From a virus (Duplodnaviria; Caudoviricetes), in the IMG/VR virus record IMGVR_UViG_3300048589_000279, positions 1 through 62,380 of that record: a DNA stretch of 62,380 nucleotides; one strand, written 5' to 3'. The notes under the pieces are model-generated. The model was not told the origin of the DNA, made no database searches, and saw nothing but the letters and a program-made list of their open reading frames with translations. How positions within the stretch are numbered: position 1 is the stretch's first letter; every line of letters begins with the position of its first letter. Below are positions 1,868 through 49,332 of this stretch, piece after piece. A program made the translations under genes and the position numbers.

Positions 1868-2464
1868 ATGGCTAAGACCTACTCGGAGAAATTGAAAGAC
1901 CCTCGGTGGCAGCGGAAACGGCTTGAAATCCTTGATCGTGACAACTTCACATGCCGCCATTGCCGATCAAAGTCAGAAACCCTGCATGTCCATCATTCCT
2001 TCTACAAAAAAAATGCCGATCCATGGGATTATGATTCCAAACATCTCGTTTCTTTGTGCGAGGAATGTCATGGGCTGGTTGAATCAAGGCGTGAATCAAT
2101 TCTCCGCAACACGGCCTCCCCCCATGCCCAATCCCTGATTTGGCAAGCAAGTGGAGTTCTTTCGATGGAATCGCCCGTCAGTGGTTTTAATGAATGGATC
2201 ATTTCTTCCGCTATTCGCCTGTCGGAAATCGAAGAATCCATTGTGCTAGCGGAAACCGTAACTGACATGGAGGAAGCGTTTAATTCTTTGAACGCAGAAT
2301 CCTTTGATTTAATCCAGTCTGTCCACCGCCTCCTTTTTTACCTTGAAGGCAAGAAAGACTCAATTTTCCAAGGAATCATTGATTCGGAATCGCCTGTGAG
2401 TGCGTTCGACCGATTGATTGAGGCGGACCCGGAAACATCTGATTTAGATGGGGGTGGGTTTTGA
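1868..2464 (+). CDS. HNH endonuclease-domain protein
   Basis: YSEKLKDPRWQRKRLEILDRDNFTCRHC...LHVHH...LCEECH. Confidence 0.85.
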   Translation: MAKTYSEKLKDPRWQRKRLEILDRDNFTCRHCRSKSETLHVHHSFYKKNADPWDYDSKHLVSLCEECHGLVESRRESILRNTASPHAQSLIWQASGVLSMESPVSGFNEWIISSAIRLSEIEESIVLAETVTDMEEAFNSLNAESFDLIQSVHRLLFYLEGKKDSIFQGIIDSESPVSAFDRLIEADPETSDLDGGGF

Positions 2465-3225
2465 AACGCTTCACCGAGACAGGGAAGTGGGATGATCCTT
2501 GGTTCAGGTCGCTTCCTGGCGTCCACAAGCTCGTTTTCCTCTACATCATCGACCGGTGCAACAATGCTGGTTTCTGGGAGATCGACATGGCTTCCATGGC
2601 CTTCCATACCAAGCTCGAAGAAAAGCACCTTGAAGGGGCTTTGAAGGGGCTTGAAAGGGGCTTACAGACCCATGACGGATGGGTATGGGTGAAGAACTTC
2701 CTTCGGCATCAGAAAAATGAGGTTTTGAATCCCTCGAATCCCGCTCACAAGCAAATCATCAGTCTTTTGACCGTTCAGCCGAATCGGTTTCCTGAATCAG
2801 CAAAATACCTCCCCGAAGGGGCTTCAAAGGGGCATTTAAGCCCCATAGGTATAGGTATAGGACAAGGTAAAGGAGAAGGACAAGGTTCTACTTCTGAGAC
2901 AGCCAAGAAGAAAAGGAAACCCGCCGAAGCCAATGGGACGATTGAGGATATGACAGCTTTTGCAGTGGAAATCGGTCTTGAACCGTCCGATGGGGAAAAC
3001 GCTTTTCACAAGTGGAACTCGACCGGGTGGAAGGGCATCAAGGATTGGAAATCCAAAATGCGAACGTGGAAGATCGAAAAGTTTCATCCGAGTCAAAAGG
3101 AAGGCAGATCCTCCAGCCAGTTCACCAACGGCCACCAACCCCAGAAAACCACCGTCAACATCGGCAGACGCAAACCTCCAAGTGACCCATTCTCCAAATC
3201 CCAACCAACCCTGATCGAACCATGA
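2461..3225 (+). CDS. Phage replication initiator (replisome organizer-like)
   Basis: N-terminal KRFTETGKWDDPWF...LYIIDRCNNAG; C-terminal KDWKSKMRTW; followed by a DnaC-like gene. Confidence 0.75.
   Translation: MKRFTETGKWDDPWFRSLPGVHKLVFLYIIDRCNNAGFWEIDMASMAFHTKLEEKHLEGALKGLERGLQTHDGWVWVKNFLRHQKNEVLNPSNPAHKQIISLLTVQPNRFPESAKYLPEGASKGHLSPIGIGIGQGKGEGQGSTSETAKKKRKPAEANGTIEDMTAFAVEIGLEPSDGENAFHKWNSTGWKGIKDWKSKMRTWKIEKFHPSQKEGRSSSQFTNGHQPQKTTVNIGRRKPPSDPFSKSQPTLIEP
2631..2862 (+). repeat. Iteron-like AAGGGGC repeats inside the initiator gene (candidate origin)
   Basis: AAGGGGC(T/A) at 2633, 2644, 2655 and 2816, 2827 (11-bp period); inverted AGCCCC at 2839; ATAGG(T/A) three times. Confidence 0.5.
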
Positions 3226-6191: not shown

Positions 6192-6689
6192 ATGAAACGC
6201 TCATTCATCCAAAAAAAACCCGCCAAGGTCAAAGTCCCATCCGTGAACCATCCAGATCGAGCCGCCTTGCCACCCAGCAAGCCCGTGGCGGCGTCCGGGG
6301 CGAAGAAGCGGGCGAGGATCAAGCCGCGTTCCTCCAAGGGCAAGGAGGACGACGCTGCGCTGGCAAGGCACGTCGCCAGGTTTCCAGACATCATCCGGGA
6401 TCCGTTCACCGGGGATTTGCTGGCAAAAAACCTGGCGGAGTTTCATCACCCCGCCGGCCGCCGCAAAGCCTCGTTCCTGTTCGTCATTCCGGTGTCTCCC
6501 GAAACCCACCGGCGTATCCATGACAACCCGAAATGGGCAACGCTGGTCGGCATGCTCTGGTCGGGCCGGAACAGCAAGGTCTTCACCGAGTCCGATGCTT
6601 GGAAACTTCTCGAACTTTGTCCCTTCCCCCAGCCGATGCGCTTGGCCATTGAGCTTTGGGTTGCCTCGAACGATAAAATCCTGCCGTGA
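6192..6689 (+). CDS. HNH-like nuclease-fold protein; C-terminus lies in attC-like site J
   Basis: EFHHPAGR...VSPETHRRIHDNPKWA. Confidence 0.65.
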   Translation: MKRSFIQKKPAKVKVPSVNHPDRAALPPSKPVAASGAKKRARIKPRSSKGKEDDAALARHVARFPDIIRDPFTGDLLAKNLAEFHHPAGRRKASFLFVIPVSPETHRRIHDNPKWATLVGMLWSGRNSKVFTESDAWKLLELCPFPQPMRLAIELWVASNDKILP

Positions 6690-6762
6690 CTGCCGCGCCC
6701 TCCATCTCCGATTCAGAACCGACCTCGCCGCGGCAGTCGTCGGCAGCGATGCCTTGTTCGTC
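6665..6762 (-). mobile_element. attC-like recombination site J
   Basis: Plus strand: GAAC-gataaa-ATC CTGCCG t GACTGCCGCG ... CGCGGCAGTC gt CGGCAG c GAT-gcctt-GTTC; hairpin with extrahelical bases. Confidence 0.85.
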
Positions 6763-7524
6763 CTTGGTGCAGTTCTCTAGCGGCATCTCTTCGTGGGCAG
6801 CGGGTAAACGCTACGCGGAGGAACACGGCACCGACGGCATGGTATTGCTCTTTGCGGATACCGGCATCGAAGATCCTGACAACTACCGATTCTTGCTTGA
6901 GGCGGTCGAAAACATCGGGGCAAGACTCGAAATCACAAGCGACGGACGCACGCCATGGGAGGTGTTTGAGGATGAGAGAATGATCGGAAACGCCCGCTTC
7001 GACCCATGCTCGAAACACCTCAAGCGCAAGCTACTGGATCGCTGGAGGAACGAGCACTGCGACGAATCCACGGACATCATCGTCGGGATAGCATTCGATG
7101 AGGTCGAACGGATCGAGCGGCTGAAAAAACGGTGCGCGCCATGGAACTACATCGCGCCGCTCTGTGAGAAGCCATGGATCACGAAGCGCGACTGCCTAGC
7201 GTGGGCAAAGCGTGAAGGCATCGAACCGCCGAGAATGTATGAAATGGGGTTCCCGCACGCGAACTGTGGAGGCTTCTGCGTGAAGGCTGGCCAAGCAACC
7301 TTCCGACTACTCCTCAAGCACTTCCCTGAGCGATACCGGGAGCATGAGGAGAAAGAGGCCGCGCTCATGGAGAAGCTGGGAAGCAAATGGGGGGTGATGC
7401 GCGACAGACGCGGAGGCGAGGCCAAGCCAATGACGATGCGCAATTTAGAGAAAGGATAGAAAACGATGAAAACGACTGCGACCAATTTGACTTTGGAGGG
7501 TGCGGGTGCGCTCTCAATTTGTAG
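6686..7524 (+). CDS. PAPS-reductase/adenine-nucleotide alpha-hydrolase family protein, 1-nt frameshift near 7440; cassette cargo
   Basis: FSSGISSW, FADTGIED, CSKHLK, GFPHANCGGFCVKAG; the expected tail DQFDFGGCGC is in the -1 frame and ends at TAG 7524 (track ORF stops at 7459). Confidence 0.8.
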
Positions 7525-7578
7525 GACGAACACCAAGGATCAGGCGCGCGAAGCGTCTCCTGTATCCGACTGTTCGGA
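7525..7578 (-). mobile_element. Short attC-like site K (54 bp)
   Basis: Minus strand: CCGAAC-agtcg-GAT a CAGG aga CGC ttc GCG cg CCTG ATC-cttggt-GTTCGTC; 5- and 6-nt spacers as in classical attC. Confidence 0.85.
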
Positions 7579-7589
7579 ATAATCCAGGA

Positions 7590-8380: not shown

Positions 8381-8806
8381 TCATGGATCTGGGAGTTCGA
8401 CGGCCTCGCCAGTCACTTGCGGCTTGTTGCCGTATTTGGGTGAGCGGTAGCACTCGAAGCGGATGTTGACCACGCGGCGGGTGCCGGGGACTTCGGGCGG
8501 GTCGATCTCAAACCACGGGCTTTTCCATGAGTCGTCATCCTCGGGATCGCCTGGTCCGGTCCATTCCCAGGTCTGATCGCTAAGGTGGAAAGACCGGAAG
8601 ACGGTGGGCGATGGATCGTCCCAGCCGTCCGGTTCTTCGAGGATGTCCCAGGTGATCTTGAAGTAAGATCCGGTGAACGGCACGTCCAGTCCTGTGTTCT
8701 GATCGGTCCATGTGTCCGGGATTACCCAGCGGAATCGGAGTTTCTTGATGCTTGCCGCAGTGATCCGCTCGGGGTTCTCCGCAAGTGTCAGGTCCGACTC
8801 CGCCAT
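8381..8806 (-). CDS. Tail-region protein, probably the C-terminal part of a split gene
   Basis: KKLRFRWVIP...GSYFKITWDI; its ATG is the antisense of the integrase-remnant His codon. Confidence 0.6.
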   Translation of the reverse strand: MAESDLTLAENPERITAASIKKLRFRWVIPDTWTDQNTGLDVPFTGSYFKITWDILEEPDGWDDPSPTVFRSFHLSDQTWEWTGPGDPEDDDSWKSPWFEIDPPEVPGTRRVVNIRFECYRSPKYGNKPQVTGEAVELPDP

Positions 8807-8955
8807 TTCTTCGCCTCATACGCCATCGAGTCCGGGATTGACGTGCCCACCGTCGCCCGGTGGCTCGGGCACAAGGATGGGGGAGTCCTGGCCATGCGCA
8901 CCTACGGGCCCTCCGGGACGATCACTCGCTGGCGAGCGCCGCCAAGTTCGGGTAA
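8793..8955 (+). pseudogene. C-terminal remnant of a tyrosine recombinase
   Basis: LRHFFASYAIESGIDVPTVARWLGHKDGGVLAMRTYG then a frameshift then LRDDHSLASAAKFG*; contains box II RH, LGH and the catalytic Tyr. Confidence 0.85.
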
Positions 8956-8959
8956 TGCG

Positions 8960-9703
8960 TCAGGAAAGTTCCCATTCAAAAGTGACCGACACGTTGGTGG
9001 TGGAACCGGTGTCAAACCAATCGGTTTCGTCGTATGTGATCGAGTTGGTGCCCATTTTGGCCCGCCACTGTGCGTTGTCCCATCCGCCGATGTTCTGGCC
9101 AACCACCGCGCCGCCGCCGCTGTCGAAATGACTCGGTGCGCTGATTTCCGTGCCCCAGCGGTCGGCGGGTGCGCGGAGGTATTCAGGATAACCCAATGAG
9201 GCGTTCCAAAAAGCCAAGCCGGTGGGAAACGATGAGATCATGATGTCGCCTGAATCATCATTTGCAGGGTCCGCATGACCGGTTTCGCTCCAGGTGCCAC
9301 AGATTTCCGCGGTGAAGCTTGCGTCATAAAAGAAGTCAATGATCTGCCAGCCAATCTTGGTTGGCACCTCGCTCAGTGTCCCCACACTGAAATAACCACT
9401 GGCGGGCGAAGTAAGCGTGTAATCTCCAACGTCAAAACCGTCATTTGCGGGACCGTTCCCAGCAGGAGCAGGGATGATCGATGTGCCAGATAGCTCCATC
9501 GGCACGCGATCCAGCGTCACTTCTTTCATGAAACTCATCGTTTCCGACCGAGTTATCCCGCTGCCATCGGTATGCGATCTCGACCCGGAAATGGTCAACT
9601 TGAGGCGGAGATGGCTGTAAAACGGCGGTCCCTCAAAGTATGGCCAAACATCTAGCAGTTTGGTTGGATTCAAAATCCCGGAATGGACGGTGCGAATGCT
9701 CAT
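8960..9703 (-). CDS. Tail-region structural protein (N-terminal part)
   Basis: ATGA overlap at 9700-9703; ends at the integrase remnant. Confidence 0.7.
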   Translation of the reverse strand: MSIRTVHSGILNPTKLLDVWPYFEGPPFYSHLRLKLTISGSRSHTDGSGITRSETMSFMKEVTLDRVPMELSGTSIIPAPAGNGPANDGFDVGDYTLTSPASGYFSVGTLSEVPTKIGWQIIDFFYDASFTAEICGTWSETGHADPANDDSGDIMISSFPTGLAFWNASLGYPEYLRAPADRWGTEISAPSHFDSGGGAVVGQNIGGWDNAQWRAKMGTNSITYDETDWFDTGSTTNVSVTFEWELS

Positions 9704-24297: not shown

Positions 24298-27200
24298 TTA
24301 CGGCTTGGGGGCTTTCTCGCGGGCTTCCAATTCCCTTTCCGCGTTCTTGCGGATGGTTTCGAATCTGCCTCGCTCGATGCGTTCGGCGCGGAAGGCTGCC
24401 ACCGCTTCGCGGGCGATGGAGGTTTTCAGTTCCTCCAGTTCCCGGCGGTTGTTGGTCGTGAACTCCATCTTCGTGATCTTGCTGATGGCGACGATCGCCT
24501 TTTGGGCGTCTTCCAGCATCAAGCGGGCCTGCCGTTGGCTCGGGTTTTCCTGCCGGCGTCTGGACTTTTGGAGTTTGGTCGATTCATCCAGGGCATCATA
24601 CAGGTTGTCCACGCTCACGGAATTCATGGTGGATTGGCCGCCGCGGACAAACAGGGTGCCAAGAACCGGGAGGTCAACCAGTTCCCGCTCGCGGTTGATC
24701 TCCTCGGGTTTTCCGAACAGTTGCACGAAGTCGGTGCCGGCGCCGCCGAACGTGCCGTTGATGGCGTGATCGATGCGCAGCGGGCTCATGCCAGTCATCT
24801 GGCCAAGTTTCGCGGCGACTTGACTGGTGTAGGGCCCGATTTGCTCCTCGCGTGCCATTTCCTCCATGCCCCGCGGAACGATGGGCATGTCGAAGAAGAA
24901 CTTCCGGTTGGCGAGTTGCTCCGTCACGGTGTCGGCAACTGCCGGCATGGCGGATGGAATCATGCGCTTGAACCATTCCTGCATCCACTCGGTCGCCTGC
25001 TTGGGATCTTCCTGATACCAGGCGTCCGCCAGTGCCACGGTGCCGGACATGAACAGACCGTCCGCTTCGAATGCGCGCGGGATCCGGATGAGTTCCTTTT
25101 TCCCGTTGTGCTCGAAGGGAATGAACGTGAAGCCGAACTTCATCTTGGTGGACATTTCCTTCCACCAGTCGGAATCCTTGGCAAACCACCAGGCAATCAG
25201 GGCGACGATGGCATGGCCAAGCCCGCGGGAGATGAATCTGACATAGCTGTTCTTGAACGCACGAACGTGTGCGCGTGGTCCTTGGATTCCAGCGTTGAAG
25301 AACGGAACCAGTTGGTTCGCCACTCGGCCATAGCGGCCGGCGGCCGTGAAGTCCGTCGTCACTTGCTTGAGGGCCTGAAGCAGCAACAGGGATGTTTCCT
25401 CGTCCATGGCATCGCCTGGCTTCCAGCCAAGATCCTTGCCGACGAGCTTCATTTCCGTTGCCCGTGACGCGAGTTCCGGGAACTGGAGCAAGTCGCGCAG
25501 GTAGTCCGCCCAATTCCGGACATCCACGATTTTCCATCCGGTCTTCTCGAACAGCCGGCGGGAAGCCCGCTCAGTCGGGCGCATGTCCTGGCCAAGCGGG
25601 GTCGCCATCTTGCCGCCAAGGCGTTCGAGCACCTCGATGGTCTTCGGGCGAACCGCTCCGCCGGTGACGGAATAGATGAACGCTTTCGAAAGCTCTCCCA
25701 TCCAGGTCAGAAACAATTCCGCGGTGTTGGCACTGGCGCGGGAGTTGAAATGCAGGGTGGAGAAGTCGCGCAGCGGGTTGGTCACAAGCGAGAACGAAGC
25801 ACGCAGGCCGGTCGTTCCGATGCGGAATGTCCGGTTGGTCAAGCCAATCGTCATGTCGATGAGCGGGGCGAGTCGGTAGGCATTCATTCCTGAAAGCGTC
25901 TCATACAAGCCTGGGTCCACGTCATAGAGGCGCATCCGGCCGCCGCGGAACACGGCGAGGATCGGGCGTTCGCCGTTCTTCACGTCGTAGGACGGCGCGA
26001 AGAAGGTGGCGATTTCCTGCATCATTGCTTCCTGCTCCGGGGTCAGTTCGATTTCATCGATGCCGGCCTTGAACAGCTTCCGGTTGATTTCCTCGATCAG
26101 TTCGCCAAGGGCCCGCTGCGCGGCGGGGACCATCTTCGGGGAGATTTCCGCAACCAGGTTCCCCATGTCGGGAACGTTCTCGGCAATTTTGAAGATTTGA
26201 TCCAGCACCCGCTTTTGATGGGCGCGGGCCACGATGTCGGCGGCTTGGGAAATCATGCCGGAGAACGGATCCTTGATGCGGCGGCCGGAACCGCGGAGGC
26301 GATCCAGCAATTTTCCACTCGCCACGCTGGAGGATCCGCCCTTGGCGGCGGCATCGAATGCTTCGAACTCGCGGAACAAAGGGATGTAGAATCCGGGATC
26401 CACGGCGCGGATGCGTTGCACGGTTGCCCGGTAGTCCTCGGAGGCGGCCGCGGCGTAATCAAGCACCAGGTCATTCCAGCGGGATACCGCGGCGGCCGTC
26501 TGCTCGAAGATGGGAGTCTCGATCTTGGCGATGATTCCGATCGCGTCGTTTTCCGACAGTCCGGGGTTTCTGGCACCGTTAGGGTCGTTCCACATGGCCA
26601 CCGCCCGCTTCGCCCACATGTAGATGAGGAAGTCTGTCTTCTTGCCGCGCACCCGGGCGAGGATTTCCGTCAAGGATCGGCCGTCGTCGCCGGGAAGCGG
26701 ATTGCCGGCGAAGTCGATCATCGCGGATTTCACCATGAATTCCGCCCTGGCCGTCGAGGTCATCCGGAGCGCGGTTGCCGCCAAGGCTGGATTCTCCCTG
26801 GCCGGGATGGCGCGGCGGCCTTTCTCGATGGCCTCCGCCACGAACCGGTCAATCGGGGCGTTGGTGTCCACCCAATCGTTCATGTAGTCCAGCGAGGCGA
26901 GTTTCTGTCCCAACTCCACGATGCGGCCGGGGCGGCGATACACGCTTTGGCGGGCGCGTTCCAAGTCTCCTTGGTTCCGCCATGTCAGACTGGCGGCCTG
27001 GGCCTTGGCAATCGACTTGGCGAGCTTCGGGTTCACGGCTTCGACTTGCGCCTTGAACCAGTCATGGAACCTCGGCGCGGCGGCCCGTGATTCAGTGTTG
27101 CCGCCATAGACCAGCACGGAGAACCATTCCCCGAATCCTTCCGAAACATATCCGCCGGTCGGCACCGTGGCACCATAGAGGGCGCGGCCCACCGCTTCCA

Positions 27201-30200
27201 TTTCCGCAATCGCATTGGCCGGAACTCCGGCGGTTCTAAATGCAGTGGCGGCGTTCCCGAACAGTCCCTTTTGCAAGGCATGTCCGAGTTCATGTGCGGC
27301 GGTCGGGATGTCGTTGGCGATCTTGATTCGGGCCAGATGCTCCCGGGTGTAATACTCGCCAAGCGAATTCCTGCCCTTGAGGTTGCCAACCCGGATCGGC
27401 ACGCCATGGCCGATGGATTCCAGCACGCCTTGCATCGTCTTGATGACCTTCGGGGCGGAAATGCCCTTCTTGATGTTGCCGATGGGGTCCGGGGAAACCG
27501 GCATCCTTGTCGCGGCTCCTCCTCTGGCTGCACCGGCATCCTTCGTCTCTGGTGCCTTGCTGGCGGGCTTTGGCGCGGCTCCCGCTGGCCTTGTGCCAGA
27601 AACCGGGGGAGTGGGGTCAGGAACGCCGTTTTTGGCGAATCTTGCCTTCATCTGGGTGACGATGTTGAAAACTGCCCGGTCGGAGAGTTTCCGCGCCTTG
27701 GCGATCTCCGGCATCGATTTGCCGGCCGCGTAGTCGCGGAACACTCCGCGCATCTCGGGTGGCAGGCTCGCCCATACCGGGTGATCGTCGCCGGGGAGGT
27801 CGCTGGCTCGGGAGGCGGAGGAAAAGAGGATGCTGTCGCTCTCCGGGTCTTTGGCGAGTTCCAGATATTTAGCATCCTGACTCGGCATGGAAGCCGAAGA
27901 ATACAGGCGATCATTCTTACTTGCCTCGGATTTTCCGATCTCTTCGATCCGGTTGAACATGGCGATCTTCCGCTTGTTCATCTTCTTCCTCTCTTCGGAA
28001 GAGTATTTCCCGGTGCCCATGGAAGATTGCAATTCCGCCGCAAGGTCCATGGCCTTTTTGTAAATGGCCGCGCCTTCCTGGGTTGCCTGTCCAATTTGGG
28101 AGTAGTTGGTTTTTTTCGATTCCTCTGCCCGATTCTGGTCATTGACCTGGCGTTTGAGTTCCGCAATTTTTCCCCTGCGATCTATGATTTTCTGAATCCG
28201 TTCCGGCGCGGTGAAGTTGTCAGCACGGCCTTGAAGCCAGTCGATTGCATCAATCCAGTCGCCGTTGGATTCGCTCACGTCAGAACGTCCGTCGCTGATG
28301 GTGAAATCCGGGCGCTTGTGATTGGTGATGCTGGAAAGCTGCCGGTCATGGTCCGTGATGCGGAATTTGTATGTCTGCTCGTCTTCGTAAGTATTATCCT
28401 TCCACTCGGAATAGGTTGATCCCTTGCCTTCTGTGTAATCCCCGATGCGTAGTTTTGGTTCCCTGCCTTGCCGCACGGAATCCAGCACCTCATCAAACAG
28501 CCCGGCTTGAATCATGTGGTTGCGTCGAGGTGTTTCGAGCGGATCACGACGCGATTCTTCCTCTAGTTTGGCGAGTTCGAGGTAGCGGGCGTCTTCTGCG
28601 GGGCTTGCTGACGAGAACAGACCTCCCGACTTAGGACGGCGAATCATCGTTTCCGAAATCCGGTAATCCTTGTTCCGTCCCTTGTTCTCCACAAATCCGA
28701 ACCGCTTGTAGAAGTCTTTCAGTCTGTTGACGCTGGATGCTCCAAAGTCGATGGAAGGGGAAAGCACGATGGCTGCATTTTTGGAATCCGCGTAGTCGGT
28801 CAACTCCTGCATGAATTCCGAACCGAGTCCTTGTCCACGATCTGACTTTGGAACCTTGATCTGATGAAGCGTGATATTCCCCGTTCTCGCGTTCTCTGAA
28901 ACGTAGTTCTCAACACCACGGGCCTCCCACTTGTCGCGGAATGGCTTCATCGTGTCCTCATAGTTGCTCGATGACGAGAACAACGCGGGTTTCGCCAGAT
29001 CGTCCAACCGCTCCATTTCCTCCTTCGCTTCCGCGTAGGTGTCAAAGGTCCGGTCTTCCTTCATTCCGGTGCGCTCGTTGTAGGCGCGGACGATGTGCTG
29101 AACGTCGCCTTTGTTGGCTTCCGTGCGGTAGGTGTAGTCGTAGAGGTTGCGCGGCCATGAGGCGGAGGCTTGAAGCGTTGTCGCCGGTTTCTCTATCACC
29201 ACCATGCGGGTGTTCACTCCGGTGGAACGGAATGCGCTCTTGAATGATCCTTCCGGCAGTTTCTCGCTGGTGCCGCCTTGGGCTTCGAGCCAGTCGCGGA
29301 ATGCCTGGGCCTTCTTCGTGGACGAGAAGAACGGGCTTTCCGACATGATGGCGACGAGCTTGCCGCCGGGCTTGAGGAAGTCATAGGCGTGCTGGACGTG
29401 CTCCATGTCCTGCCCGTCTTCGAACGGTGGATTCATCAAAACCACGTCGTATCCGCTGGCGGCACCGCGCTTCTCGAAGCCTTGGAGTTCCGAAAGGTTG
29501 AAGTAGCCGATGACTTCGCCATCCTCTTTCTCCAACCGGACTCGCTCGCTGCCCATCTCACCCAGGCCGCGAAGGATGCCTTTCTTCCCGGTGGCGCGTT
29601 CCATGTAAATGTCGCCGTAGGTGAAACCGCGGGTTTTGGGGTCCATGTCCATGAAGTCCCGGCCAATCAGCAAGTGACCTTTGGCGGAAATGATGTCCCG
29701 GAGCGTGGATTGCGTTTCCGCCACGTCAACGATCGCGCCGGCCGCCTTGGCTGCATCCGCAATATCGGCTTTGCCGCCGGACGGCTCCAGAACGTGCTTG
29801 CCGCTCAAGTCGCCGGCGATGTCCAGCATGTCCTCGATGACGGTTTGCGGGGTGGGGAAGAATCCGGGGATGTTCTTGCCGATCAAGTCGCGCTCCATGG
29901 CTTTGATCGGGTCTGCCTTGGTTTTGTTGCCACGGAATTGCAGGAACTCACGGAGGGATGCGCGGAGTTGGGCGATGTCCCAGATTCCCATCGCGTGAAG
30001 GCGCTCGTGTGACTCGAACTTCCACTTGATGCCGTCCCACACGGGTTTTCCTTTCCAATCGCGGGTTTTCTTCGCCAGTTCCCGGACGTTTTCGATGTCG
30101 GATTCATGCGTGAGATACCCGCCGTTGCCGTTCTTCTTCGGATCGTAGAGGCGGATCTTGGCGACTCGCTCGGCAAGGAGTTTCGCTCCTGGAGTGGTGC

Positions 30201-33200
30201 GTCCGCGTTCCACCATTTCGAGCATGGAAGAATGGTCCATAAATGGGTAAGGCCATTCCGCTTTGTCCATCTGCTCAAGCGTAGGTGCCAATTCTGCGCG
30301 GGTTTGTTCTTCTCCGTAGGAGAGTCCTTCCGCCCTCATGGCGTCACGCTTTGCCGATTCGCTCAGGCTTTGCAAAGTCTCGACATGGGTCTTGGTGGAA
30401 ACTCCGTCCAGATGTGTCGCTTCGCCGCTCTCGATGGCATTGGCGAGGTTGCGCATGGTTTCCGCCATGGCTTTCACTCCGCGGGCTGCTGCCTCGGCGT
30501 GAACGGCTTCTTTGGCGCGTTTCGGGGTGTTCTCCCTGCGGTCGCGGTTGAGCGATGTGTCGGCCGCCTGGTCCATCCGGTCTGCGGCAGCGGAAAGCCG
30601 TTCGGCGGCGGCGTTCTTCTTCTCCGCGCGGCGCTCCTGCACGGCTTCGGTTCGGTCCACTGTCTCGCCCTTGGTGATCGCTTGGAACTGCTCGGCGGTG
30701 GCGCGGTCCTTGAATTGGAATCCGGGAACGGCTCCGCCCACCCGATAGGACGAGTAGTAACCACCCAGCTTTTTCGCCGCGGCATTGAGGCTGTTATACA
30801 CCTCGCGCTCCACCCGGTCGGCCAGCTTCACCACGAACAACGGCACGCCGGTCTTCGTGTGTTTGGTTTCGATGATCTCGGTGTCGGTGTCGGCCTTGAC
30901 GCCGCGCACGGTCGCTTTCCGCTCCGCCTGTGCCTGCTCCTGCGCCTTGCGGTCGATCCCGCGAACGTTGTCATAGGCGGCGAGTTGTTCCGGGGTCAGG
31001 CGGGATTCACCGCGGGCCATGATCGCGTCATGGCGGGCGTAATCGCTCTTGATGGCCTTGAATGCGGCCACTTCCTCGCCGGTCAGTCCGGTGACTCCCT
31101 TGCGGTTCACGAACTGCTTCCACTCGTCCAGCGTCTCGGGGTTCTCCAGGGCCTTACTGCGGGCTGCCTTGGCGTCCCGGCGCTCTTGTGCCTGCTTCTG
31201 GATGATCTCGTCCGTCCACGTCGCCACGGCCTTGTCCATTGCCGCACGGCGGGAGTTCTCCATCGCTCCGGGTTTGCTCGCGCTCAGGACGCTTCCACCG
31301 TAGGAAAGCATCGATCCGGGGTTGAACTGCCCTTCCAAGGCGTGCATCGCGCTCCGAACCGCATCCGCCTTGTTGTCGGGCTTCCGCATCCCCTGGAACC
31401 TCTCCAGTTCCTTCATGGTCATCTTGGCGATTTCCTTGTGAATCGCTGGCTCGATCGCCTTGAAGGTTTCCCAGCCGGCCTTGATCTGGTCGGCGGTCAC
31501 GTCGCCGTCCTGGATGTTGGTGAAGAACTTCCGCAGGCTCAGGAGGTCGGTGATCGGCTCAACGGTCGATTTCTTTGGAGCTAGGTCCGAAGGTTTGGAT
31601 TCGAGGTCCGAAGGTTGCTCCGAAGGTTTGGCGGATTCCCTGTCTTTCCTCACCTGATCGGCCATCGCCAACAGGGATTCAGCTTCACGGATCGCGGCGG
31701 CTTTGTCCTCACTCGGGTTCTTTGCCTGCTCGGCGCGGGCTTGGCGAAGTCCTTCTTCGAGGGCTTTACGGGTCGGCGCTGGCTTGGCGGCTTCGGGTTT
31801 CTCCACTGGTGGCGTCTCTGCCGGGGTTTCTCCCTTGATGGCGGCAATCTCGGACTTCGCCTCGTCAATGAGACGCTGCCATTGATCCAAGCGGTATTGC
31901 GGTTCTTTCGCCGCACTCGGGCGGGTCAAGTCCAGTTCCAGTTTGCGAATCAGAGCTTCGCGCCGTGTGATCTTGCGCTTGGCCGTTTCCGGCTTGCTCA
32001 TCAGGTCGGAGTAATCCGCCAAGGCCTTCTGTGCTGCTTCGAGGTTGCCTCCCAGCCAGCGACTCAGGGCCGCCCGTCCGCTTTCCCCGGTGGTCTTGCC
32101 GGCGGCTTCCTTGAGGGCCTTGTAAATGTCCTCGGATTCATAGGACGACCACTTCTGTTCGGTGCGACCGTAACCAACATCGACGGTGTTGCGAAACTCT
32201 TTCGCAAGATCGCGGCGGGCGTCCTCGATGGATTGCAAGGTCGCCTTGGCGGAGTTCTCGCGGGCTTCCGCGCCCATCTGTTCGCCGGTGATGTCGGCAA
32301 AGTGACTGATGCACTCGGATCCAACCAGCATCGTCCAGTTCTTCCCGCCGTGCTTGATGTGGTAGAAGTTCTTCACCGGCTGCTTGCCGCACCATTCGCA
32401 GTTGCCGATGACGGATCCGGTTGGGAACAGTGTCGGGGCGTGCTTCATGTCACGAAGTCCGCTGATGTCTTGAAGCGGTTTGCCGGATTCCGGGTCCGTC
32501 TGCCCGTTGAATGGCAGTGCTTCCCACTCGGGAATCCTGGTTCCCATGTGGATCTGGTTCGCGGCGACTGCCTGCTCGTAGGTCCGAATCGGACGATCCT
32601 TGAGGGATTCACTTTCCGCGATGATGGCTTTCGCCTGTTCCTTGGTGATCTTCGCCGCTGCTTCGGCCTGGGTGATCGCGGCGGGCGTCTCCTGCTCCAC
32701 CGGGGCGGCGGGTTGAACTGTCAACGATTGGTTGTCAGTTGCCGGTGCATACAGCTTCGCCCAATCCACCTTCTCGGCGGCGCGGCCCTGCATCGCCTCC
32801 AGGATGCCCCACACCGCTTGGCTGATGGGTTGCAGTCCGATGGGTTCAAGGAACTTCGCCATGTCCTCCGGGGTCTTCACCTCGCCCTTCTCGATCACGC
32901 TTTGCAGGATCGGCATGAGCTTCGGCAGTCCGGTCGGCTTGATCGGCAGCGAGTATTGCGCGTTCGGGTCGGGACTCGCGGAACTGAAAAGCGCCTGTCC
33001 GGCTTCGACTCCCGCTTTCATGGAGGGGGTGATCTGAATGACCCATGCCGGGAAAATTCCGCCTGCGTCGTTTTCTCGCTTTGCCCGGAGAACGTCCACA
33101 ATTTGCGTCACGAACTGGCTCAACCGTCCGGGGTCGTTGCCGGGAATGTCGTCGTAGGTGAGCGAGGTTTGCCCCCATTCGTCGTGAAACTCTTCCAAGT

Positions 33201-36200
33201 CCATGTCGCCGCGGATCAATCGCTTGGCGTCCTGACGGGCTTGTGAGAGTTCTTCACGGGTGAGCTTTCCGGTTCCCTCCTTGGGTTTGCCGATCTTGGA
33301 AAGTTGGACGACTCCGCCCCACTGCTTGACATACTTCCCGATCTCCTTGGGCAGCATGGTGTCGTAGAAGCCCTTCATGCCGGAGCCGCCGACTTTGAGG
33401 TCAACCCCTTCAAGTGATCCCATGCCGTTCCCGATGCTTCCGACGCCTTGCCGGATGCGTGCTGCAACGTCTTTCCCGACGGTGTCTTCGAGCTTCGCGT
33501 CGGTGGAATCTGTCTCCGTGATGATTTCGCCATCCTTGATGCCTTGGATTGTCCAGCCATCTTCAACAGATCCGCCGTAATTGAGAGAGTCAACTTGCCT
33601 CCCAAGATCAAACCTGTCGTTCTGCGTCTCTCCGACCGTCCAACCGATCCAGTCCTTGCCGGATGCCACGGCATCCCGAAGGGCGCGTTTGAATAGGGCG
33701 AGGGGCCATGTGGTGCGGAAGGGAGCGTCGGCTACTTTGCTGCTGTTCACGTCGCTGAATGCCTTCTGCACCGCCTGATTGCGGTCGCGGAACGATCCGA
33801 CAAAGCTCTCGAAGCCATGCGACTGGTGGTAAAGCGCGTGCAGTCCTGATTCGGCCTCGCGGATCGCGTAGCCGGGGGGAAGTTCGCCTTCGGTCTGGGT
33901 GGCAGATTCGACATATCCGCTCTTGCGCCCCGCTTGGTGGCGGTCGCTCTGGATCTCCTCGATGAACAGCCCGCCGTCGCGCTCGTTCAAGCGCATGTGA
34001 GCGACGTAGTTCGGAACGTCGGGGAAGTGGCTGGAGGTGTAGGAATCGTTTCTTTCCGGCGACTCATACAGGGCGTCCATTTCGATGGCGACATCTCCAA
34101 ACGCATCTTTCCAAAGTTGAAATTGCTTTTCTTTTGGGAGTGATAGGAAGTCCGCCTCCGCAATATCGTGATAATTTGCAACCTCATCAGCTTCCAAGGT
34201 TTCTTTAAACTTCCGACGTAATAGATCATTTTTGAATCTCTCCGTCTGAACTGGCATCGCCAGCACCACCTCGCGGTAGTTCTCACCGCCAGGGAGCGTG
34301 TATTGGGAGAACTTGGAATCTGGATGTCCTCCTTGGTCGGACAGTCGTTTCAACTCTTCCGCTTCCAATTTTGTCAGCTTGCCAGCATCCCGCTTGTCGA
34401 GAAGGTCGGACCATCTTTGGTTGTTGACTGGTGGATCAAGCGTCACCTCCTCGAACCTCACCGCGCCCTCATTGGCCAGCCACTCCAGCAACTCCGCCTT
34501 GTCCACTTTGCCGTCCTTGGCGAGTGACTGCGCGGCCTGCTCGATCCCGCTCCACTTGAACTCCTCCGCCTTGCTCCCGCCCTTGGCGATTGCGAGCACC
34601 TGACCCACCGGGGCCGACTTCGGCATCTTGGCTTCCAGCGTGCGGCTGAGTTGCGAGTAGAACGGGGGATTCTCACGGGAGGCGGAGGAGAACAGCGAAC
34701 CTTGCCCGCCGCGGTTCTCTGGTTCTCCCATGAAGAGGCTTTGCTGCGTGATCTTGGGATTCAGGACCGGTGCCGGCTTCACGGCCTCTTTCAATGCCTG
34801 CTCGACTAGTGGCTTGTCCTTAGCTGCCAGGTTCTCGGCCGCCATGTCGAACGCCATCTTCTGTCCAAGCGCGGTTTCCGCTTCGAGTAACGTCTGCTCC
34901 TCCTCGGCGGTCAGCGTCTTGCCGGCGTTACGCTTTGCCGTCAGCGTCTTGTATGCGCCGAACGCGGACTTCGTGCCTTGGATCTTGAGAGCTTTGATTT
35001 CCTCGGTGGGCTTCTGGTTATCGCCAAACAGGTCGTCCATGCCGGAATCGCGGGACCGGCTGGCGGATGAAAACAACCCTTCGAGTTCCTTCAAGTCCTG
35101 CTCCTCTTGCGTCAGGACCGTTTCTGCGGGCTTTGAATCCCTCGCCGCGAACATATCGCCTTGCGCGGCATCCATCGCCGCCTGTGCCTCTTCCTTGGCC
35201 TTGCGTGCGGCTGCCACCTTGTCGCCATCCGTGGTCTTGTCGCCTGTCAGGTTGAATCCTCCATCATCGGCAAACAGTTCCTTCGCATTGGTGTTGCGAA
35301 CGTCCATCTTGGAGACGGGGCGATTAACTCGCTGCCCTTGCTGCATCGCCATGATTTCGTCAGGAGAATAACCAAGGATGTTTTCCTTCTGCCGTTGCTC
35401 CAGATAGGCTTTGGATTCCTCCACGCTCATTCCCTTCGATGGGGCGGGGGCCGCATTGGGTTCTTTCCCCGGTGCGGCGGCGGCTTTCCCTTCCGGCGTG
35501 ATGACTGGCGCTCCGGGATCACTGAATCGGTTCTCCTTGCGGATTTGCTCAACCCACTTGTCCCATTCCGCCACCGTCGCATCACCTTTCTCCACCATGT
35601 AGGCGAAGCGGCCGGATCCCTCTTGATCGCCGGGGCGGAGTCCGGGGGTGTGATACTGGCCTTTCTTGACGAAAAGAATGTCCTGCTCGCGGCGGTTGAT
35701 GGCCGAATCAATGTCTTGGACGCTTACCGGCTGTCCTGCGGGCGCGGCTTTCTTTGCCTCGCGTGTCCTGCGGGCTTTGGCGGTGGTTTCCCGTTGCTTC
35801 TGTTCCGCTGCCTCACGGTCGGAGCGTTCCTGATTGAACTGGTCGGTCAACGGGTGCTTGCCGTTGGCGTTCCATGCTTCCAAGGCCGAATCTCTCGCTT
35901 GGCGAAGCTCGGCAAGCCTTGGGTCGGCTTTGAGGTTGTTGTATGCCCGGTAGCGGCTCGCCACGTTCATTCCGCCGCTCTGCTCGTCATAGAGCTTCCA
36001 TGCCTCATCGGACGCTTCGGACGGGGTAAGAGGAAAGCGGATGTCGTTCCCCATGTCGTCTTGCAAGGCAACCCAATCGTTTCCGCCTTCGTTGTAGGGA
36101 ATCGTTTTGAATCCGGGTGGAAGCGAAACGTCGGCTGCGGCTGCGGCTTCTTGCAATGCCTTCTCAAGCGGTGCCAGTTCTTGCACGGCGGCCTTGTAGT

Positions 36201-39200
36201 CGTCCGCGAGATTGGAATTGCGGGTTTGCCAGCCGCCTACTTCGTTCCCTCTCGGGGCGGCATCCTGCCCGCGTCCCGCTCCACCTTCCGGCGCTTCTCT
36301 TCCGCTCGGCACCTCTCCAGCAGGGCCATCTCCCAAATCCCCCTCCGGCTCAGGCCCGTATTGTTCGAGCAACTGCGCGTAGGTTTCGGGATCCGCTTCC
36401 TTGAGTTCATCCACCGAATCGTAACCTCGGGCAATCGCCGCGTCAACGATGGTCGAAATGATCGGTTCAAACTCGTCGGGCTGCTCCACATAGACGACAT
36501 CGCCGCTGTCGAGAACCTGCCGTCCGAATCTCGCGCCGTCTTGGAGAACCACTTGCCCGCCCTTCTCAACGGACTGAACTTGGAATTCCTCGCCATCGAT
36601 CGTGATCGTGGATCCTTCCACCAAATCACCGGCCTTGATTTCCTCGGTGCCAAAATCGAAGTCATTCGCCCGCTTGAATTCTTCGGCTTGGATCTCCGCA
36701 TCGGTGCGTTCCCGGTTCGGGTTGCGCGGATCGTTCTCCTTGGAAATCTTGCCCTTCGCCACTTGGTCGAGTTCCGCCATGACGGCAATCATCGCCTCGT
36801 CATTGGTCACTTTGTCGCCAAGCAGTCCCGCCCAATCGTCCAAGTCGGTGTTCTCATTGTATTGGCTGAAAAGCATCCCGTGGAGTTCCTGCGCGACTTT
36901 GCCGTTGAAATCGGTGCCGAATGCGGTCTTGGGCAGGTAGGCATTGAATCCCGCCTTCTCCCACTTGTCCCACAACTCGCGTTGCGCCTGGGTCGCTCTG
37001 CCTTCTTCCATCCGGCCTTTGATGATCTTGAGCATCCCCGTTGGCGGGGCTTGGATCCTGCCGCCCATGATCTTGTCGATGGTCGCCAAGTCGCCGGAGC
37101 GCAACAAGCGGAATGCTTCCCGGCGGGCCGGGGTGTCTGTCACCCGGCTTTTCTTCGGAGAAGGTTTCTCCCCGGCGGGTTGGGAAGGTTTGGAGGAAAA
37201 GTCAATTCGAGCCATTTCGGCGCGTTTCAACGTCTCAGCCATGCCTCCACGAAGGAGCAACGTGCGGATGTCTTTCGTCGGGGAGTAAGGCGTGATCCAT
37301 TGGGAACCGAGCTTTTGCTTGATATTGAATTCCCCGTTTCCAAGGTCCACAAGTCGGTAATCTTCCTCGTAAGGAAGTTCCTTGGCATACATGGCAATCC
37401 ATTCGTCTCGATGCGTTTTCAGCCACTCGGGATTGAGTGAAGCGGCGTTGAGCGTCTTTGGAGTGTTCTCCCCGGCATCCGGTGCGCTGGCCTCCTCGGG
37501 CTTTGATTGTGCGGCGGCCTTGGATGCGGGGGAAAGTTCGTCGGGGGACTTGCGCAGCAACGTCCCCAAGCTGTCGGATCTCACCATCAATCGCCCTTTG
37601 GCATCCGGGGCGGCATCCGTGACCGTGCCGGTGTCTTTGGTGCCAAGGTGGGTGAAGCTGACCTTCTCACCGGTGCGATCCTTCGTTTCCGGTTTCGTTT
37701 CCGCAATATCTCCCAGAGTTTCTGGCTTTGCGGCTGGTTCTTTCGGTTTCGTTTCTGGCTTCGTGTCCCCCTTGCCGGTGATCTCCTTGTAGAACGCTTC
37801 GAGTTCGTCCAGGTGCTTCTTGGCGGATGGCGGAAGGTCTTTCAGGATCGACTTCAAGTAGTTGATCGCGGCCTGGATCATGTTCTTGAATGCGTCGGTC
37901 CAGCCTTTGCGGGCCATCTCGCGGACAAGCTCGTTGGTTTCGCCGTTGAGCTTCGCGTTGAGCGCCATCCGGAAAATCTCCGCGCCCTTCTGGCCGGGGC
38001 TGAGTGCCTGCCATTGCGGGCTTCCAGGTGTCGGATCGTAGATCGCTGCCGCGGCCTGATCCACTCCGGAACCCTCGCCGCCCATCTCGGCGTATTGGCC
38101 GGCGTTGAACTGGTTGAACCACACGGCGAACGGCGGCTTCTTGCCCTCGATGGCTTCCCACTCCTGCCGCTTCAATTCGACCTGCGCGAAATGCCCGACT
38201 TCGTGACTGATGGCGAGGTCGGTCAAAACCTCGATGGCCTTGGCTTCATCCCAGCCGTTCACCTTGATCTCGCGGGCGATGTCCTTCGGGGAAATGGTCA
38301 GGGTGCCGTCCAGGGACATCCAGGCGCCTCCGCTGGCCTGCTTGCCATCGGCAACCTTCACCTTGCCCTTGAGGCGGGCGACGGTGCTTTCCACCGCGGC
38401 TTGAACGGCCTTGGCTACTTTCACCGGGTTGGGTGCTTTGTCGGCGGTGGGTGGCTTGGCCGGTTTCTCTACTTCGGGGGCGGATTGACCAGTTGGCGCG
38501 GTGGGTTTTTCCCGAATGACTCGGATTGATTGATCCCCGCGAAGTCTTGCTGCTGATACACGATGGCCGCCATCAAGAACGCTGAATGTTCCTTGGTCGT
38601 TTGGCTTCGACGTTACGAGAATCGGAGGAAATTCCCCGCCACGTTCCGCATACTGCCTGAAAAGAGGATCGCGGACGGTGGAATCGTAGCGTTCACCTTC
38701 CATGTTTGCTGTGATCGCGCTGAGTGGAAGCGTTTCGGCAACGTATTCTTTCCCGTCCTTGATTCTGGTGCGTGGATCAACTCCACCCTCCTTTTCTGAC
38801 GGTTTCAACATCAAGCGGGCTTGTTTTGCCGTGATCTGTTGTGGCTTGGCTACCTCCTCCGGCGCGGGCGCTCCTCCTCCTGGAGCCACGGTTCCGCCTT
38901 GTCCGGTTCCATCTCGAACAGGTTGACCCGGTGCTCCCGTTTCGGCGGGTGGGGATTGTGGATCTTGGGCAGGTGGTCGCGTTTCTTCTCGTCCTTGCGG
39001 GTATGGCTCATTGGATTGTGGTGCGGTTTCTTGGGATGATGGTGCGGCCGGCGCGGCAGTCAGTCCGAAGCGGGCGCGGATCTTCGTCAGCGACTTGTTG
39101 AATCGCCGTGCGTCAGGATTGGACGGATCAATCGGTTTCTCGGATTGTGCCAGGCGGGCTTCGAGGATGGCCGCGGTTGCGGTGTCGCCTCGATCGCGGG

Positions 39201-47382: not shown

Positions 47383-47781
47383 TCAGTCGAGGTTCAGCGA
47401 TTGTTTCGCCACGGATCGCCACGCATCGGCCTGCTTTTGCTTGTTCGGATCGGCGGCGAAGTCTGCCCACGCGGGGAGCGGATCGCCGTTGAACGCGACG
47501 CCACCAACGGCTTCGCAATAGACCGAGTAGAGCAGATCGGCGTGTTCATCGAGGTTGGGCTGTTCTTTCGAGGTTTGGATGAGCGCCAGCAGCGCGTCGC
47601 CAATCGGTTCGCCGTAGCCCCATGAGCCAGGCGATCCCATCGCTCTCTCGACAGGGATTCCCTCAATCACCGATCCCAAGACGCTGATGAGCGCGGTGGT
47701 GTGATGATCCAGTTCAGGGTTGTTTTCGGCGGCGTGGTTGACGATGGCGTTGCGGAGGTCTCGTTGTTGTTGTGTTATCAT
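47383..47781 (-). CDS. Hypothetical protein (cassette 1)
   Basis: AMGSPGSWGY and YCEAVGGVAFNGDPLPAW motifs. Confidence 0.7.
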   Translation of the reverse strand: MITQQQRDLRNAIVNHAAENNPELDHHTTALISVLGSVIEGIPVERAMGSPGSWGYGEPIGDALLALIQTSKEQPNLDEHADLLYSVYCEAVGGVAFNGDPLPAWADFAADPNKQKQADAWRSVAKQSLNLD

Positions 47782-47812
47782 ATTTCGTTTGGTTTGGGGT
47801 GATTCGGAAGAG

Positions 47813-47909
47813 GTGGAACAAGACGCCGATCCCAACAGAGATGGCGTCCGAGTTCATTTAGGTAGCGGAGTCTTGCCCGCCATCTCTGTGGGATGGCTCA
47901 GCGTTCTGT
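47813..47909 (+). mobile_element. attC-like site A
   Basis: GAAC-aagac-GCC g ATCCC a ACAGAGATGGCG ... CGCCATCTCTGT GGGAT GGC-tcagc-GTTC. Confidence 0.9.
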
Positions 47910-48607
47910 GTATGAAATGGGAGCACGTCCTGCGCGAGACGAGCGGCGGCGATTTCGCAATAGCGTTCCTCCCGCTCAATCAGCACGGCACGCTTCCCGA
48001 GATTCTTCGCGGCGTGTCCTGTGGTGCCAGATCCCGCCCATGGGTCGAGGATGGTTTCCACGTTCCCCGCTTGCTGAATGCACCATTGCATCAGCCCCAG
48101 CGGCTTTTGCGTCGGATGCTGTGGGTTGCTGTCTGAGCGGCAGCGATGGTGCTTCGCTGGTCCTGGGATATTCGTGAAGGCGATTTCCGCGCTGCTTCGC
48201 GTTTCCAAGTGCTCCACATGCGGCTTTTGCCACATCAGGAACTTTTTGTGAGGCGGCAGCAGATTGCACAGGTAGTTCATCCCCCAGATGATTTGCAGGT
48301 TGGCCTTTTCCATTGCGGCGGCAATGGCTTCCCCGTCGATTTTTTCATCATCCCAGTTCCCTTTTCTTGCCATGCCGTATCGGCGCGTCGTCCTTGATCC
48401 GTCGAGTGCATTCATGCCATACGGAGGGTCGGTGAGCAGCAGGTCGAAGCGTTCCAGCATCGGCATGATTTCCCGACAGTCGCCGTGATAGATCGTCACG
48501 TATTCGTCGCGGTAGAACGGCACCGGCAACACAGAACAAGGCATCGCACCCAATGACTGCCCGGCGGCAGTTTGGGGCGAGGATGGAGCGTCAGGGCGGG
48601 CAGTCAT
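47858..48607 (-). CDS. N4-C/N6-A DNA methyltransferase, beta class (cassette 2)
   Basis: YHGDC, LTDPPY, HPTQKP, ILDPWAGSGTT. Confidence 0.93.
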   Translation of the reverse strand: MTARPDAPSSPQTAAGQSLGAMPCSVLPVPFYRDEYVTIYHGDCREIMPMLERFDLLLTDPPYGMNALDGSRTTRRYGMARKGNWDDEKIDGEAIAAAMEKANLQIIWGMNYLCNLLPPHKKFLMWQKPHVEHLETRSSAEIAFTNIPGPAKHHRCRSDSNPQHPTQKPLGLMQWCIQQAGNVETILDPWAGSGTTGHAAKNLGKRAVLIEREERYCEIAAARLAQDVLPFHTQNAEPSHRDGGQDSAT

Positions 48608-48628
48608 GGGTGGATTTTGTCGTTCATC
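48531..48628 (+). mobile_element. attC-like site B
   Basis: GAAC-aaggc-ATC g CACCC a ATGACTGCCCG ... CGGGCAGTCAT GGGTG GAT-tttgtc-GTTC. Confidence 0.9.
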
Positions 48629-48936: not shown

Positions 48937-48955
48937 CGGAGGTAATTCGGAAGAG

Positions 48956-49042
48956 GATGAACAAGGCGTGAGATGCGACGGCTATAAGCCGTCTTGTTGA
49001 GGCGGAGCGCAGCGATGCCGCGCATCCACATCGGCGTTCGGC
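48956..49042 (+). mobile_element. attC-like site C
   Basis: GAAC-aaggc-GTG a GATGCG a CGGC ... GCCG CGCATC CAC-atcggc-GTTC. Confidence 0.9.
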
Positions 49043-49308: not shown

Positions 49309-49332
49309 CGGTCCGTGTGCTCTGCGTTCGGC
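49233..49332 (+). mobile_element. attC-like site D
   Basis: GCCGAAC-aagac-GCAGCACAGAACCG ... CGGTCCGTGTGC-tctgc-GTTCGGC. Confidence 0.8.

Follow-up and report, generated by a model that had tools for sequence, protein, structure and literature searches.

The stretch of DNA analysed here (the window) represents a complete viral record; it is 62,380 bases long and has direct terminal repeats of 127 nt. Its gene content includes small and large terminase subunits, a portal, a major head protein, and a DnaB-like helicase, and the phage also encodes an Erf-like annealing protein, an exonuclease, and several DNA methyltransferases. Genes lie on the - strand almost throughout, and the rightward operon is short, occupying 1-7.5 kb. 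A first-pass annotation had placed a solitary cassette at the end of this operon, with a PAPS-reductase-like gene set between two attC-type sites termed J and K. The placement is correct, as this gene is the final one of the rightward operon. The features of the locus are as follows.

6192 to 6689, + strand: upstream phage gene, whose terminal six codons and stop codon fall within J
6667 to 6760, + strand: predicted attC site J; the + strand corresponds to the attC bottom strand
6671 to 7530, + strand: probable cassette of 860 nt, consisting of J, the gene, and, at the end, the left half of its own R box
6686 to 7459, + strand: PAPS-reductase-like open reading frame (ORF), 257 aa; start at GTG 6686 or ATG 6749, both within J; premature stop
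6756 to 6764, + strand: extended 3' R box of J, GTTCGTCCT; pairs with 7523-7531, five bases beyond the core
Between 7440 and 7441, + strand: base missing relative to the copy in bacterial assembly G006, from DNA alignment; frame shifted
7441 to 7524, + strand: displaced C-terminal coding part, ending at TAG 7522-7524, in the other frame open over 7387-7524
7523 to 7531, + strand: AGGACGAAC; its first eight bases are the cassette end, and the C at 7531 would complete the R box in the circle
7527 to 7576, + strand: weaker candidate attC site K, compact, its apical stem 3 bp long and its loop 3 nt

The ORF product matches the phage protein family phrog_424 (phosphoadenosine phosphosulfate reductase) with an E value of 1.7e-47. 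Against Pfam PF01507 it reaches 17.2 bits, which is under the gathering threshold of 22.5, and its close homologues are named PAPS reductase/FAD synthetase by several sources. On these sequence matches, the product is probably best called PAPS-reductase-like. The phage ORF and its counterpart in G006 are 98% identical over 254 residues, and the G006 frame stays open for 282 residues. In the phage, the frame shift at 7440/7441 leads to the stop at 7459, and the conserved C-terminal end thereby displaced is present in the G006 copy and in homologues of 67-83% identity. The base loss may reflect either real decay or an assembly error, and unless it is the latter, the phage gene copy may no longer work.

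Relatives of the flanking genes give a partial view of the insertion point. One homologue of the upstream gene, P0003, is 84% identical and diverges at the AAC of J, immediately past the Ser-Asn codon pair, and other relatives of this gene in viral and metagenome contigs share only 32-37% identity. The downstream gene has one relative, L057 (78% identity), with synteny on the structural side; over 12.4 kb it carries neither an attC site nor any counterpart of the rightward operon. The search through relatives of the cassette, upstream, and downstream genes turned up no close relative in which the site is empty. Viral contigs yielded no relative of the PAPS-reductase-like protein, and a DNA search of the phage collection with the window returned two weak matches only. 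The terminase relatives L011-L017 have no CTTGTTCGG arrays, and one site was found in L012 by covariance model. In sequencing runs X1-X4, no contig bridges J, the cassette, or K, and no joints were seen. The material from these runs on the flanking genes consists of short contigs only (151-260 nt, depth 2-4), and X1-X3 have no cover over 6607-7200, a gap that carries no evidential weight.

Architecture and distribution of the hairpin family

Site J is a long imperfect hairpin whose fold is more stable than that of all 200 of 200 shuffled sequences (z -3.96). Its 5' R box ends in the AAC at 6669-6671 and its 3' R box begins at the GTT at 6756, such that cleavage of an attC site of this form would fall between 6670 and 6671. 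A second copy, 75% identical, lies at 48533-48626 on the - strand ahead of a methyltransferase gene. When a pattern derived from these two copies was applied to the viral collection, 11 further loci were recovered that carry a near-identical element of about 92 nt. The flanks of these 11 loci are unlike on both sides, with the divergence beginning immediately past GAAC at the left end and past GTTC at the right end, and at least six unrelated genes stand behind the J-type copies. Taken by itself, the pentamer pair CGAAC...GTTCG shows no enrichment (11 pairs in the window versus 20.4 +/- 5.1 in Markov simulations), and therefore the case presented here is built on structure and comparison, not on the motif.

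Several other accounts of the repeated element were considered and set aside. Against the idea that J is a duplicated gene start, the proteins behind both J-type copies have only the leader in common, and the proteins upstream of both copies are unrelated. A MITE-like element or transposon was dropped when inspection by eye revealed no target duplications in the J-type flanks. Translational bypassing was considered for the locus and dropped without a formal test, and splicing was dropped on reading of the sequence, as the frames fail to join.

Two covariance models were used to extend the family. Model R1 was built from J-type copies, and model R2 was built from 25 more diverse matches (24 distinct). 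Site J scores 92.8 bits with R1 and 84.9 bits with R2 (E 1.2e-20). The 25 aligned sites have a common layout, in which an R box is followed by a spacer, 3 bp, a bulge, 6 bp, a bulged T, and a variable stem and loop. The unpaired spacer is 5 nt long in the 3' arm and 5-6 nt long in the 5' arm, and the two bulges, usually C and T in the family, are the 9th and 16th nucleotides from the 3' R box, 6 bp apart on the same arm. AAC and GTT are retained in 23-24 of the 24 distinct sites, and both J and K carry them. The full RYYYAAC/GTTRRRY consensus is matched only in part, with most phage sites reading GAAC/GTTC and so deviating at one position; the bacterial arrays described below also include TAAC/GTTA and CAAC/GTTG forms.

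This layout can be compared with that of integron attC sites, whose bottom strands, according to the available part of PMC7439510, are cut between the A and C of RYYYAAC. The same part of that source describes an unpaired central spacer and two extrahelical bases at 9 and 16 nt from the R box, and states that the 6-bp distance between these bases matters (PMC7439510). As judged from sequence and predicted pairing, the layout of the hairpin family is that of integron attC bottom strands.

The pairing itself is supported by covariation. All 19 of the 19 base pairs of the inner helix show changes on both sides, 97.6% of its alignment cells are paired, and G-U pairs occur in 2 cells. Across the whole structure, 95.7% of cells pair, compared to 28-44% in controls with partners shifted by one to three columns; these counts were made on a model-fitted alignment, which biases them toward the structure, and the shifted controls still favour a real fold. 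Because the inner helix is nearly without wobble pairs, folding as DNA rather than as RNA is indicated. The family thus conserves structure and not sequence, which is the behaviour expected of attC sites.

Site K is less easily recognized. The first-pass annotation had described it as a compact site with a CGC-TTC-GCG apex, and a compact hairpin is indeed present, with the apex at 7547-7555 reading CGC-GAA-GCG on the + strand and as described on the - strand. Its R2 score is 13.9 bits, for which the E value is 0.25 over the whole window and 0.0012 in a targeted search of the 301 nt behind the gene; this targeted search is significant, and a site at this place is what the logic of an array predicts. 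On the + strand the fold of K has a z score of -2.19 and is matched by 5 of 200 shuffles, and on the - strand it has a z score of -3.19 and is matched by none of 200. The cmsearch alignment fits the bases of K to the family layout, with T and T as the two bulges. In one low-depth X2 contig, bases 7529-7582 recur identically between flanks unlike those of the window, with the left break at AAC. Similarly, in G005, a distant relative of the phage, compact 56-nt sites that score 24.5 bits close the corresponding cassettes. On model scores and predicted folds, K can be regarded as a weak, compact member of the attC-type hairpin family.

Model R2 finds ten significant sites in the window, namely J and nine others at 47815-51417 on the - strand. 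These nine form the main array, as listed here.

47815 to 51417, - strand: main array, nine predicted attC sites bounding eight cassettes of about 280-720 nt
51298 to 51417, 50981 to 51097, and 50597 to 50727, - strand: main-array attC sites predicted by R2
50260 to 50343, 49671 to 49766, and 49235 to 49330, - strand: main-array attC sites predicted by R2
48958 to 49040, 48533 to 48626, and 47815 to 47907, - strand: main-array attC sites predicted by R2

The main-array sites score 26.4-96.2 bits with R2, and each gene junction in the array has one. The cassettes carry, among other genes, those for two DNA methyltransferases and an HNH endonuclease. In other viral contigs, R1 and R2 reveal arrays of up to 13 sites. 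The distance from J and K to the main array had been put at roughly 17 kb around the circle, in opposite orientation, and both statements agree with the data: the separation is about 17.6 kb if the 127-nt terminal repeats are joined, and J is on the + strand while the main array is on the - strand. The accompanying proposal that cassettes have been captured at more than one place in the genome is likewise supported by the two separate loci here and by G005, which has two attC loci in opposite orientations.

No integron integrase was found in the phage. A search with PF00589 gives only a 29-residue remnant at 8795-8881 (17.1 bits), and neither G006 nor G007 has a DNA match to the surrounding region, 8740-8990. 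Given that the phage lacks an integrase, its two loci are to be classed as attC clusters without integrase.

Bacterial integrons, a shared segment, and split R boxes

Scanning bacterial genomes with the same pattern produced matches in two Verrucomicrobia assemblies. In one of these, G006 (Verrucomicrobiae), the integron integrase model TIGR02249 identifies three integrases above its cut-off, at 380.8, 305, and 289.7 bits. R2 sites lie upstream of all three of these genes, on the coding strand, in numbers of 39, 8, and 4 respectively. A fourth integrase-like ORF in G006 scores 215.5 bits against the cut-off of 265, in one stretch spanning model positions 2-314, and ten R2 sites are found upstream of it on the coding strand, starting 186 nt away. 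Provided that the modelled strand is the attC bottom strand, the G006 arrays have the usual integron layout. On this comparison, the hairpin family can be identified as that of the attC sites in Verrucomicrobia integrons.

The fourth G006 array contains the segment under study. Window positions 6669-7531 align with positions 8236-7373 of L054, from G006 contig 29, at 98.96% identity over 864 nt. The shared segment starts at the AAC of J and stops at the GAAC of K, and the outer flanks are unlike. J is 100% identical in the two copies, which differ overall at 8 positions and by one indel, and the rest of the 18-kb G006 locus has nothing else in common with the window at either the DNA or the protein level. 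Within the G006 array, the shared cassette is the one closest to the integrase-like gene. Thus, the same unit is present in a second context with ends that coincide with the recombination point, which is how gene cassettes are recognized. This comparison mirrors the test put forward in the first-pass annotation, with the cassette seen in other surroundings in place of a relative that lacks it, and its outcome is favourable. The shared unit includes J but leaves K out, which places the exchange point, read along the coding strand, at the 5' AAC of each site; bottom-strand cleavage would be expected to give this result.

A further signature is provided by the R boxes. It had been pointed out in the first-pass annotation that a 9-bp complement joins the inner ends of J and K, and this holds exactly: GTTCGTCCT at 6756-6764 has its precise reverse complement, AGGACGAAC, at 7523-7531. 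This complement is the cassette's own R box, split by integration. If boxes are split in this manner, the 3' box of a site is expected to pair best with the bases before the AAC of the next site, and not with those of its own 5' box. Among 79 adjacent site pairs in six arrays, the 3' box of one site pairs with the 5' box of the next by at least three bases beyond the core in 73 cases. The corresponding counts for controls are 13 of 85 when each site's own 5' box is used (at least three extra bases) and 250 of 1895 (13%) for random pairs. The main array shows the split R-box signature at 8/8 junctions. For J and K, the extension is 5 (9 bp in all), versus 1 for J's own 5' box (5 bp), and of 1895 random box pairs, 29 extend their pairing by at least 4 bases past the 4-bp core. 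The 3' box of K pairs with the left half of J's 5' box for 5 bp and then stops. On this pairing, the cassette need not have been inserted into K itself.

Overall, the earlier reading, in which a solitary cassette is bounded by two attC-type sites, J and K, is supported. Signs of mobility come from the J-type copies before different genes, from the recurrence of K in another context, and from the divergence of P0003 at the AAC codon. The reading is further supported by the attC architecture and heavy covariation of the family, by the family arrays beside the G006 integrases and the near-identical J-to-K segment in the fourth of these arrays, and by the split R-box signature at J-K and at every main-array junction.

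Gene orientation and competing explanations

The gene of an integron cassette usually lies on the top strand, has no promoter, and can be read from a promoter beside the integrase. The cassette described here differs in that its gene is on the bottom strand and starts inside J. The description of the sites as antisense to the gene, as given in the first-pass annotation, is accurate in the sense that the coding strand is the attC bottom strand. This arrangement is common in the phage loci, where 46 of 54 sites contain the start of an ORF that runs at least 50 codons beyond the site. Such in-site starts are seen in 3 of 51 sites in arrays beside the above-cut-off integrases and in 13 of 27 sites in two mixed bacterial arrays. 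Moreover, behind the J-type sites, 6/6 downstream gene kinds are in frame with the in-site ATG.

On the evidence as a whole, it can be stated with considerable confidence that 6671-7530 is an integron gene cassette, composed of attC site J and the PAPS-reductase-like gene, at the end of the rightward operon, and that K is the next attC site. According to this explanation, the + strand, which is both the bottom strand and the coding strand, would fold as single-stranded DNA, and the integron integrase of the host would cut the folded strand and exchange it with another attC site. In this way, host integrons and at least two loci of the phage genome could trade cassettes. The cassette gene would be transcribed as part of the rightward operon, and its translation would begin at a start codon in J. 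Because the phage has no integrase, the action of a host enzyme on its DNA is something that we infer.

Several points weigh against this explanation: the weakness of K, the limited pairing of its 3' box with the left half of J's 5' box, the lack of a phage integrase, the departures of the R box and first bulge from their usual form, and the search for a close relative with an empty site, which gave none. In addition, the integrase-like gene next to the cassette in G006 reaches 215.5 bits, under the TIGR02249 cut-off of 265.

Integrase-made cassettes could instead have entered the phage by homologous or illegitimate recombination, perhaps through the Erf-like protein and exonuclease with attC sites serving as homology patches, in which case J and K would be inherited scars and not active sites. 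The phage does encode these two proteins and no integrase, a transferred block of an array would retain the split R-box signature, the boxes of K mismatch the left half of J, and the cassette gene is already decaying. However, this route seems improbable, as the left junction lies within a phage gene exactly at the AAC and the P0003 homologue diverges at the same codon, K is found elsewhere with a break at AAC, and the pairs of oppositely oriented loci both here and in G005 better fit repeated site-specific events. Least credible is the notion that the bacterial match is an artefact, caused by a chimeric metagenome contig that includes phage DNA or by bacterial DNA in the window. Both records are metagenome assemblies, but the 8 differences and one indel mean that the copies do not come from one molecule, and the shared part is bounded by structural landmarks on both sides. 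Furthermore, each of the two contexts is an array of this one site family, and the G006 contig that carries the cassette spans 441,881 bases.

An RNA-level explanation must also be considered, in which J and K act on the message as translational operators that hide start codons, or as processing sites, and their likeness to attC sites is convergent. In its favour, the sites lie on the coding strand at gene junctions and have a start codon in the 5' arm, and the frequency of in-site ORF starts in phage loci (46/54) and the in-frame ATG for all six downstream gene kinds behind J-type copies point in the same direction. Against this stand the near absence of G-U pairs from the inner helix (2 cells) and the bacterial arrays, whose genes are on the other strand (3/51 such ORFs), so that the structure is kept without a message. 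The arrays also adjoin integrase genes, and the split R box and exact AAC breakpoints have no RNA-level reason. It is therefore very unlikely that RNA function alone explains the sites. The sites may nevertheless have an RNA role in addition to their DNA role.

Relation to known systems and biological meaning

In the essential features, the phage sites resemble those of class 1 and chromosomal integrons. Both have a folded hairpin with an AAC/GTT R box, an unpaired spacer, a variable apex, and two extrahelical bases on one arm that are 6 bp apart. The cassettes are of similar size (about 0.3-1 kb) with the R box split at junctions, and arrays adjoin an integrase gene whose coding strand carries the attC bottom strand. 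In contrast to those systems, the fourth R-box base is mostly G/C here instead of Y/R, and the first bulge is C instead of G. The phage genes are on the bottom strand, with start codons and the stop codons of upstream genes located inside the sites, and the phage has neither attI nor an integrase.

Clusters of attC sites without an integrase (CALINs) have been reported in phage genomes (Qi et al. 2023, PMC9892861), so the kind of locus described here is already known. The available portion of that paper presents phage attC sites and cassettes without an integrase gene, includes DNA methyltransferases among the cassette genes, and proposes phages as a route of cassette transfer, all of which parallels or bears on the present case. 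That study, as far as the same portion goes, relied on IntegronFinder, on isolated phages of other hosts, and on IntI1 tests, whereas the sites here were found from structure, belong to a Verrucomicrobia-type attC family, and occur at two loci. By comparison with what could be consulted of PMC9892861, the present analysis also differs in that one cassette is 99% identical to a member of a bacterial array and in that bottom-strand genes start inside the sites. What is new by this comparison is the host group, the presence of two loci in one phage, and the match, exact at its ends, between a phage cassette and one in a bacterial array.

The promoter-stem-loop cassettes of T4-type phages offer another parallel, in that short structured boundary elements mark swaps of accessory genes between related phages. 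In the accessible text of PMC2839356, those elements are described as regulatory and are thought to act via homologous recombination, and they are presented there without integrase-type architecture, an AAC cut site, or a counterpart in bacterial integrons. The literature searched, insofar as its sources could be consulted, holds no evident description of start codons embedded in attC sites or of Verrucomicrobia integrons, and the term 'inverted orientation' in PMC11023631 has another sense. A bottom-strand gene that starts inside an attC hairpin may therefore be new for phage-borne cassettes.

Integrons are the best-known bacterial gene-capture system, and the movement of cassettes between cells is poorly understood. 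That the same cassette turns up in a phage and in a bacterial integron, 99% identical and with its ends exactly at the recombination point, is direct sequence evidence of exchange. In addition, R2 provides a covariance model for the Verrucomicrobia-type attC family that finds arrays in many uncultivated phages. The phage cassettes, which mostly carry DNA-modification genes, likely counter host restriction.

A broader proposal can be offered, to which we give a little less than an even chance. Verrucomicrobia phages would carry their own class of integron cassette, in which the gene lies on the bottom strand and the hairpin supplies the translation start and the first 20-30 codons. Such a cassette would be expressed at once within a phage operon without an integron promoter, host integrases would swap accessory genes, mostly for DNA modification, at several places in the genome, and arrays like G006:C29 would represent the shared pool. 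If the in-site start codons of bottom-strand genes are confirmed, they would change how the expression of cassettes is viewed and how cassettes are annotated.

Solitary cassettes and gene starts within attC sites

The placement of a single gene between two hairpin sites at the end of a rightward operon is not confined to the window. In G005, a distant relative of the window phage (35% capsid identity), the following arrangement is found at locus L034.

L034 4253-5033 (G005:C1:8752-9532), end of rightward operon: J-type site, methyltransferase gene and compact 56-nt site

This layout is identical to that formed in the window by site J, the PAPS-reductase-like gene and site K, but the gene is different. 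G005 also carries a second array on the opposite strand. When the PAPS-reductase-like gene of the window is aligned with its bacterial copy from G006, one base fewer is present at 7440-7441, and because this base is missing, the encoded protein ends before its conserved C-terminal end.

Phage-borne sites and those of bacterial arrays beside integrases differ in where genes begin. A gene on the bottom strand, the attC strand that carries the phage cassette genes, starts inside the site in 46 of the 54 phage-borne cases (the window plus viral loci L012, L029, L030 and L034-L039), versus 3 of 51 in the bacterial set (L059-L061). In the main array, the 5' box of the first site (51298-51417, minus strand) is degenerate, with GGAC in place of GAAC, and this may mark the edge between the array and the phage backbone.

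Other features of the phage genome

Several additional features were noted in the window.

2621-2866, plus strand: GAAGGGGCTT-like repeat units (families D2 and D11) in two clusters 172 nt apart, within ORF 2461-3225
8795-8881, plus strand: C-terminal tyrosine recombinase remnant of 29 residues (17.1 bits against PF00589)
24298-43092, minus strand: single ORF of 6264 residues between the terminase and portal genes
47781-47810 and 52082-52110, minus strand: common C/A-rich leader CACCCCAAACCAAACGAA, then ATATG or TATG, ahead of two genes

The recombinase remnant lies about 1.2 kb from K, in the gap separating two minus-strand structural genes, and its DNA has no match in either Verrucomicrobia genome (G006 or G007). 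Inspection by eye revealed nothing resembling a Shine-Dalgarno sequence ahead of the two genes with the C/A-rich leader, and the leader may be the translation start signal in this host. The repeats at 2621-2866 might be iterons of an origin.

Arrays in the Verrucomicrobia assemblies

The locus in G006 that holds the bacterial copy of the cassette also includes an array.

L054 6067-11284 (G006:C29): integrase-like ORF with a ten-site array alongside

The integrase-like ORF scores 215.5 bits, which is under the TIGR02249 cut-off, and the array has phage-type cassettes in about half of its positions. The integrase-proximal site, 186 nt from the integrase-like gene, is also a hairpin, and no attI was identified beside this ORF. 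In the 7-Mb G007 assembly, where integrase genes are fragmentary, at least 32 matches to R2, the covariance model of the hairpin family, are spread over many contigs (with 150 of 5930 candidates scored), and very large arrays may be present in this genome.
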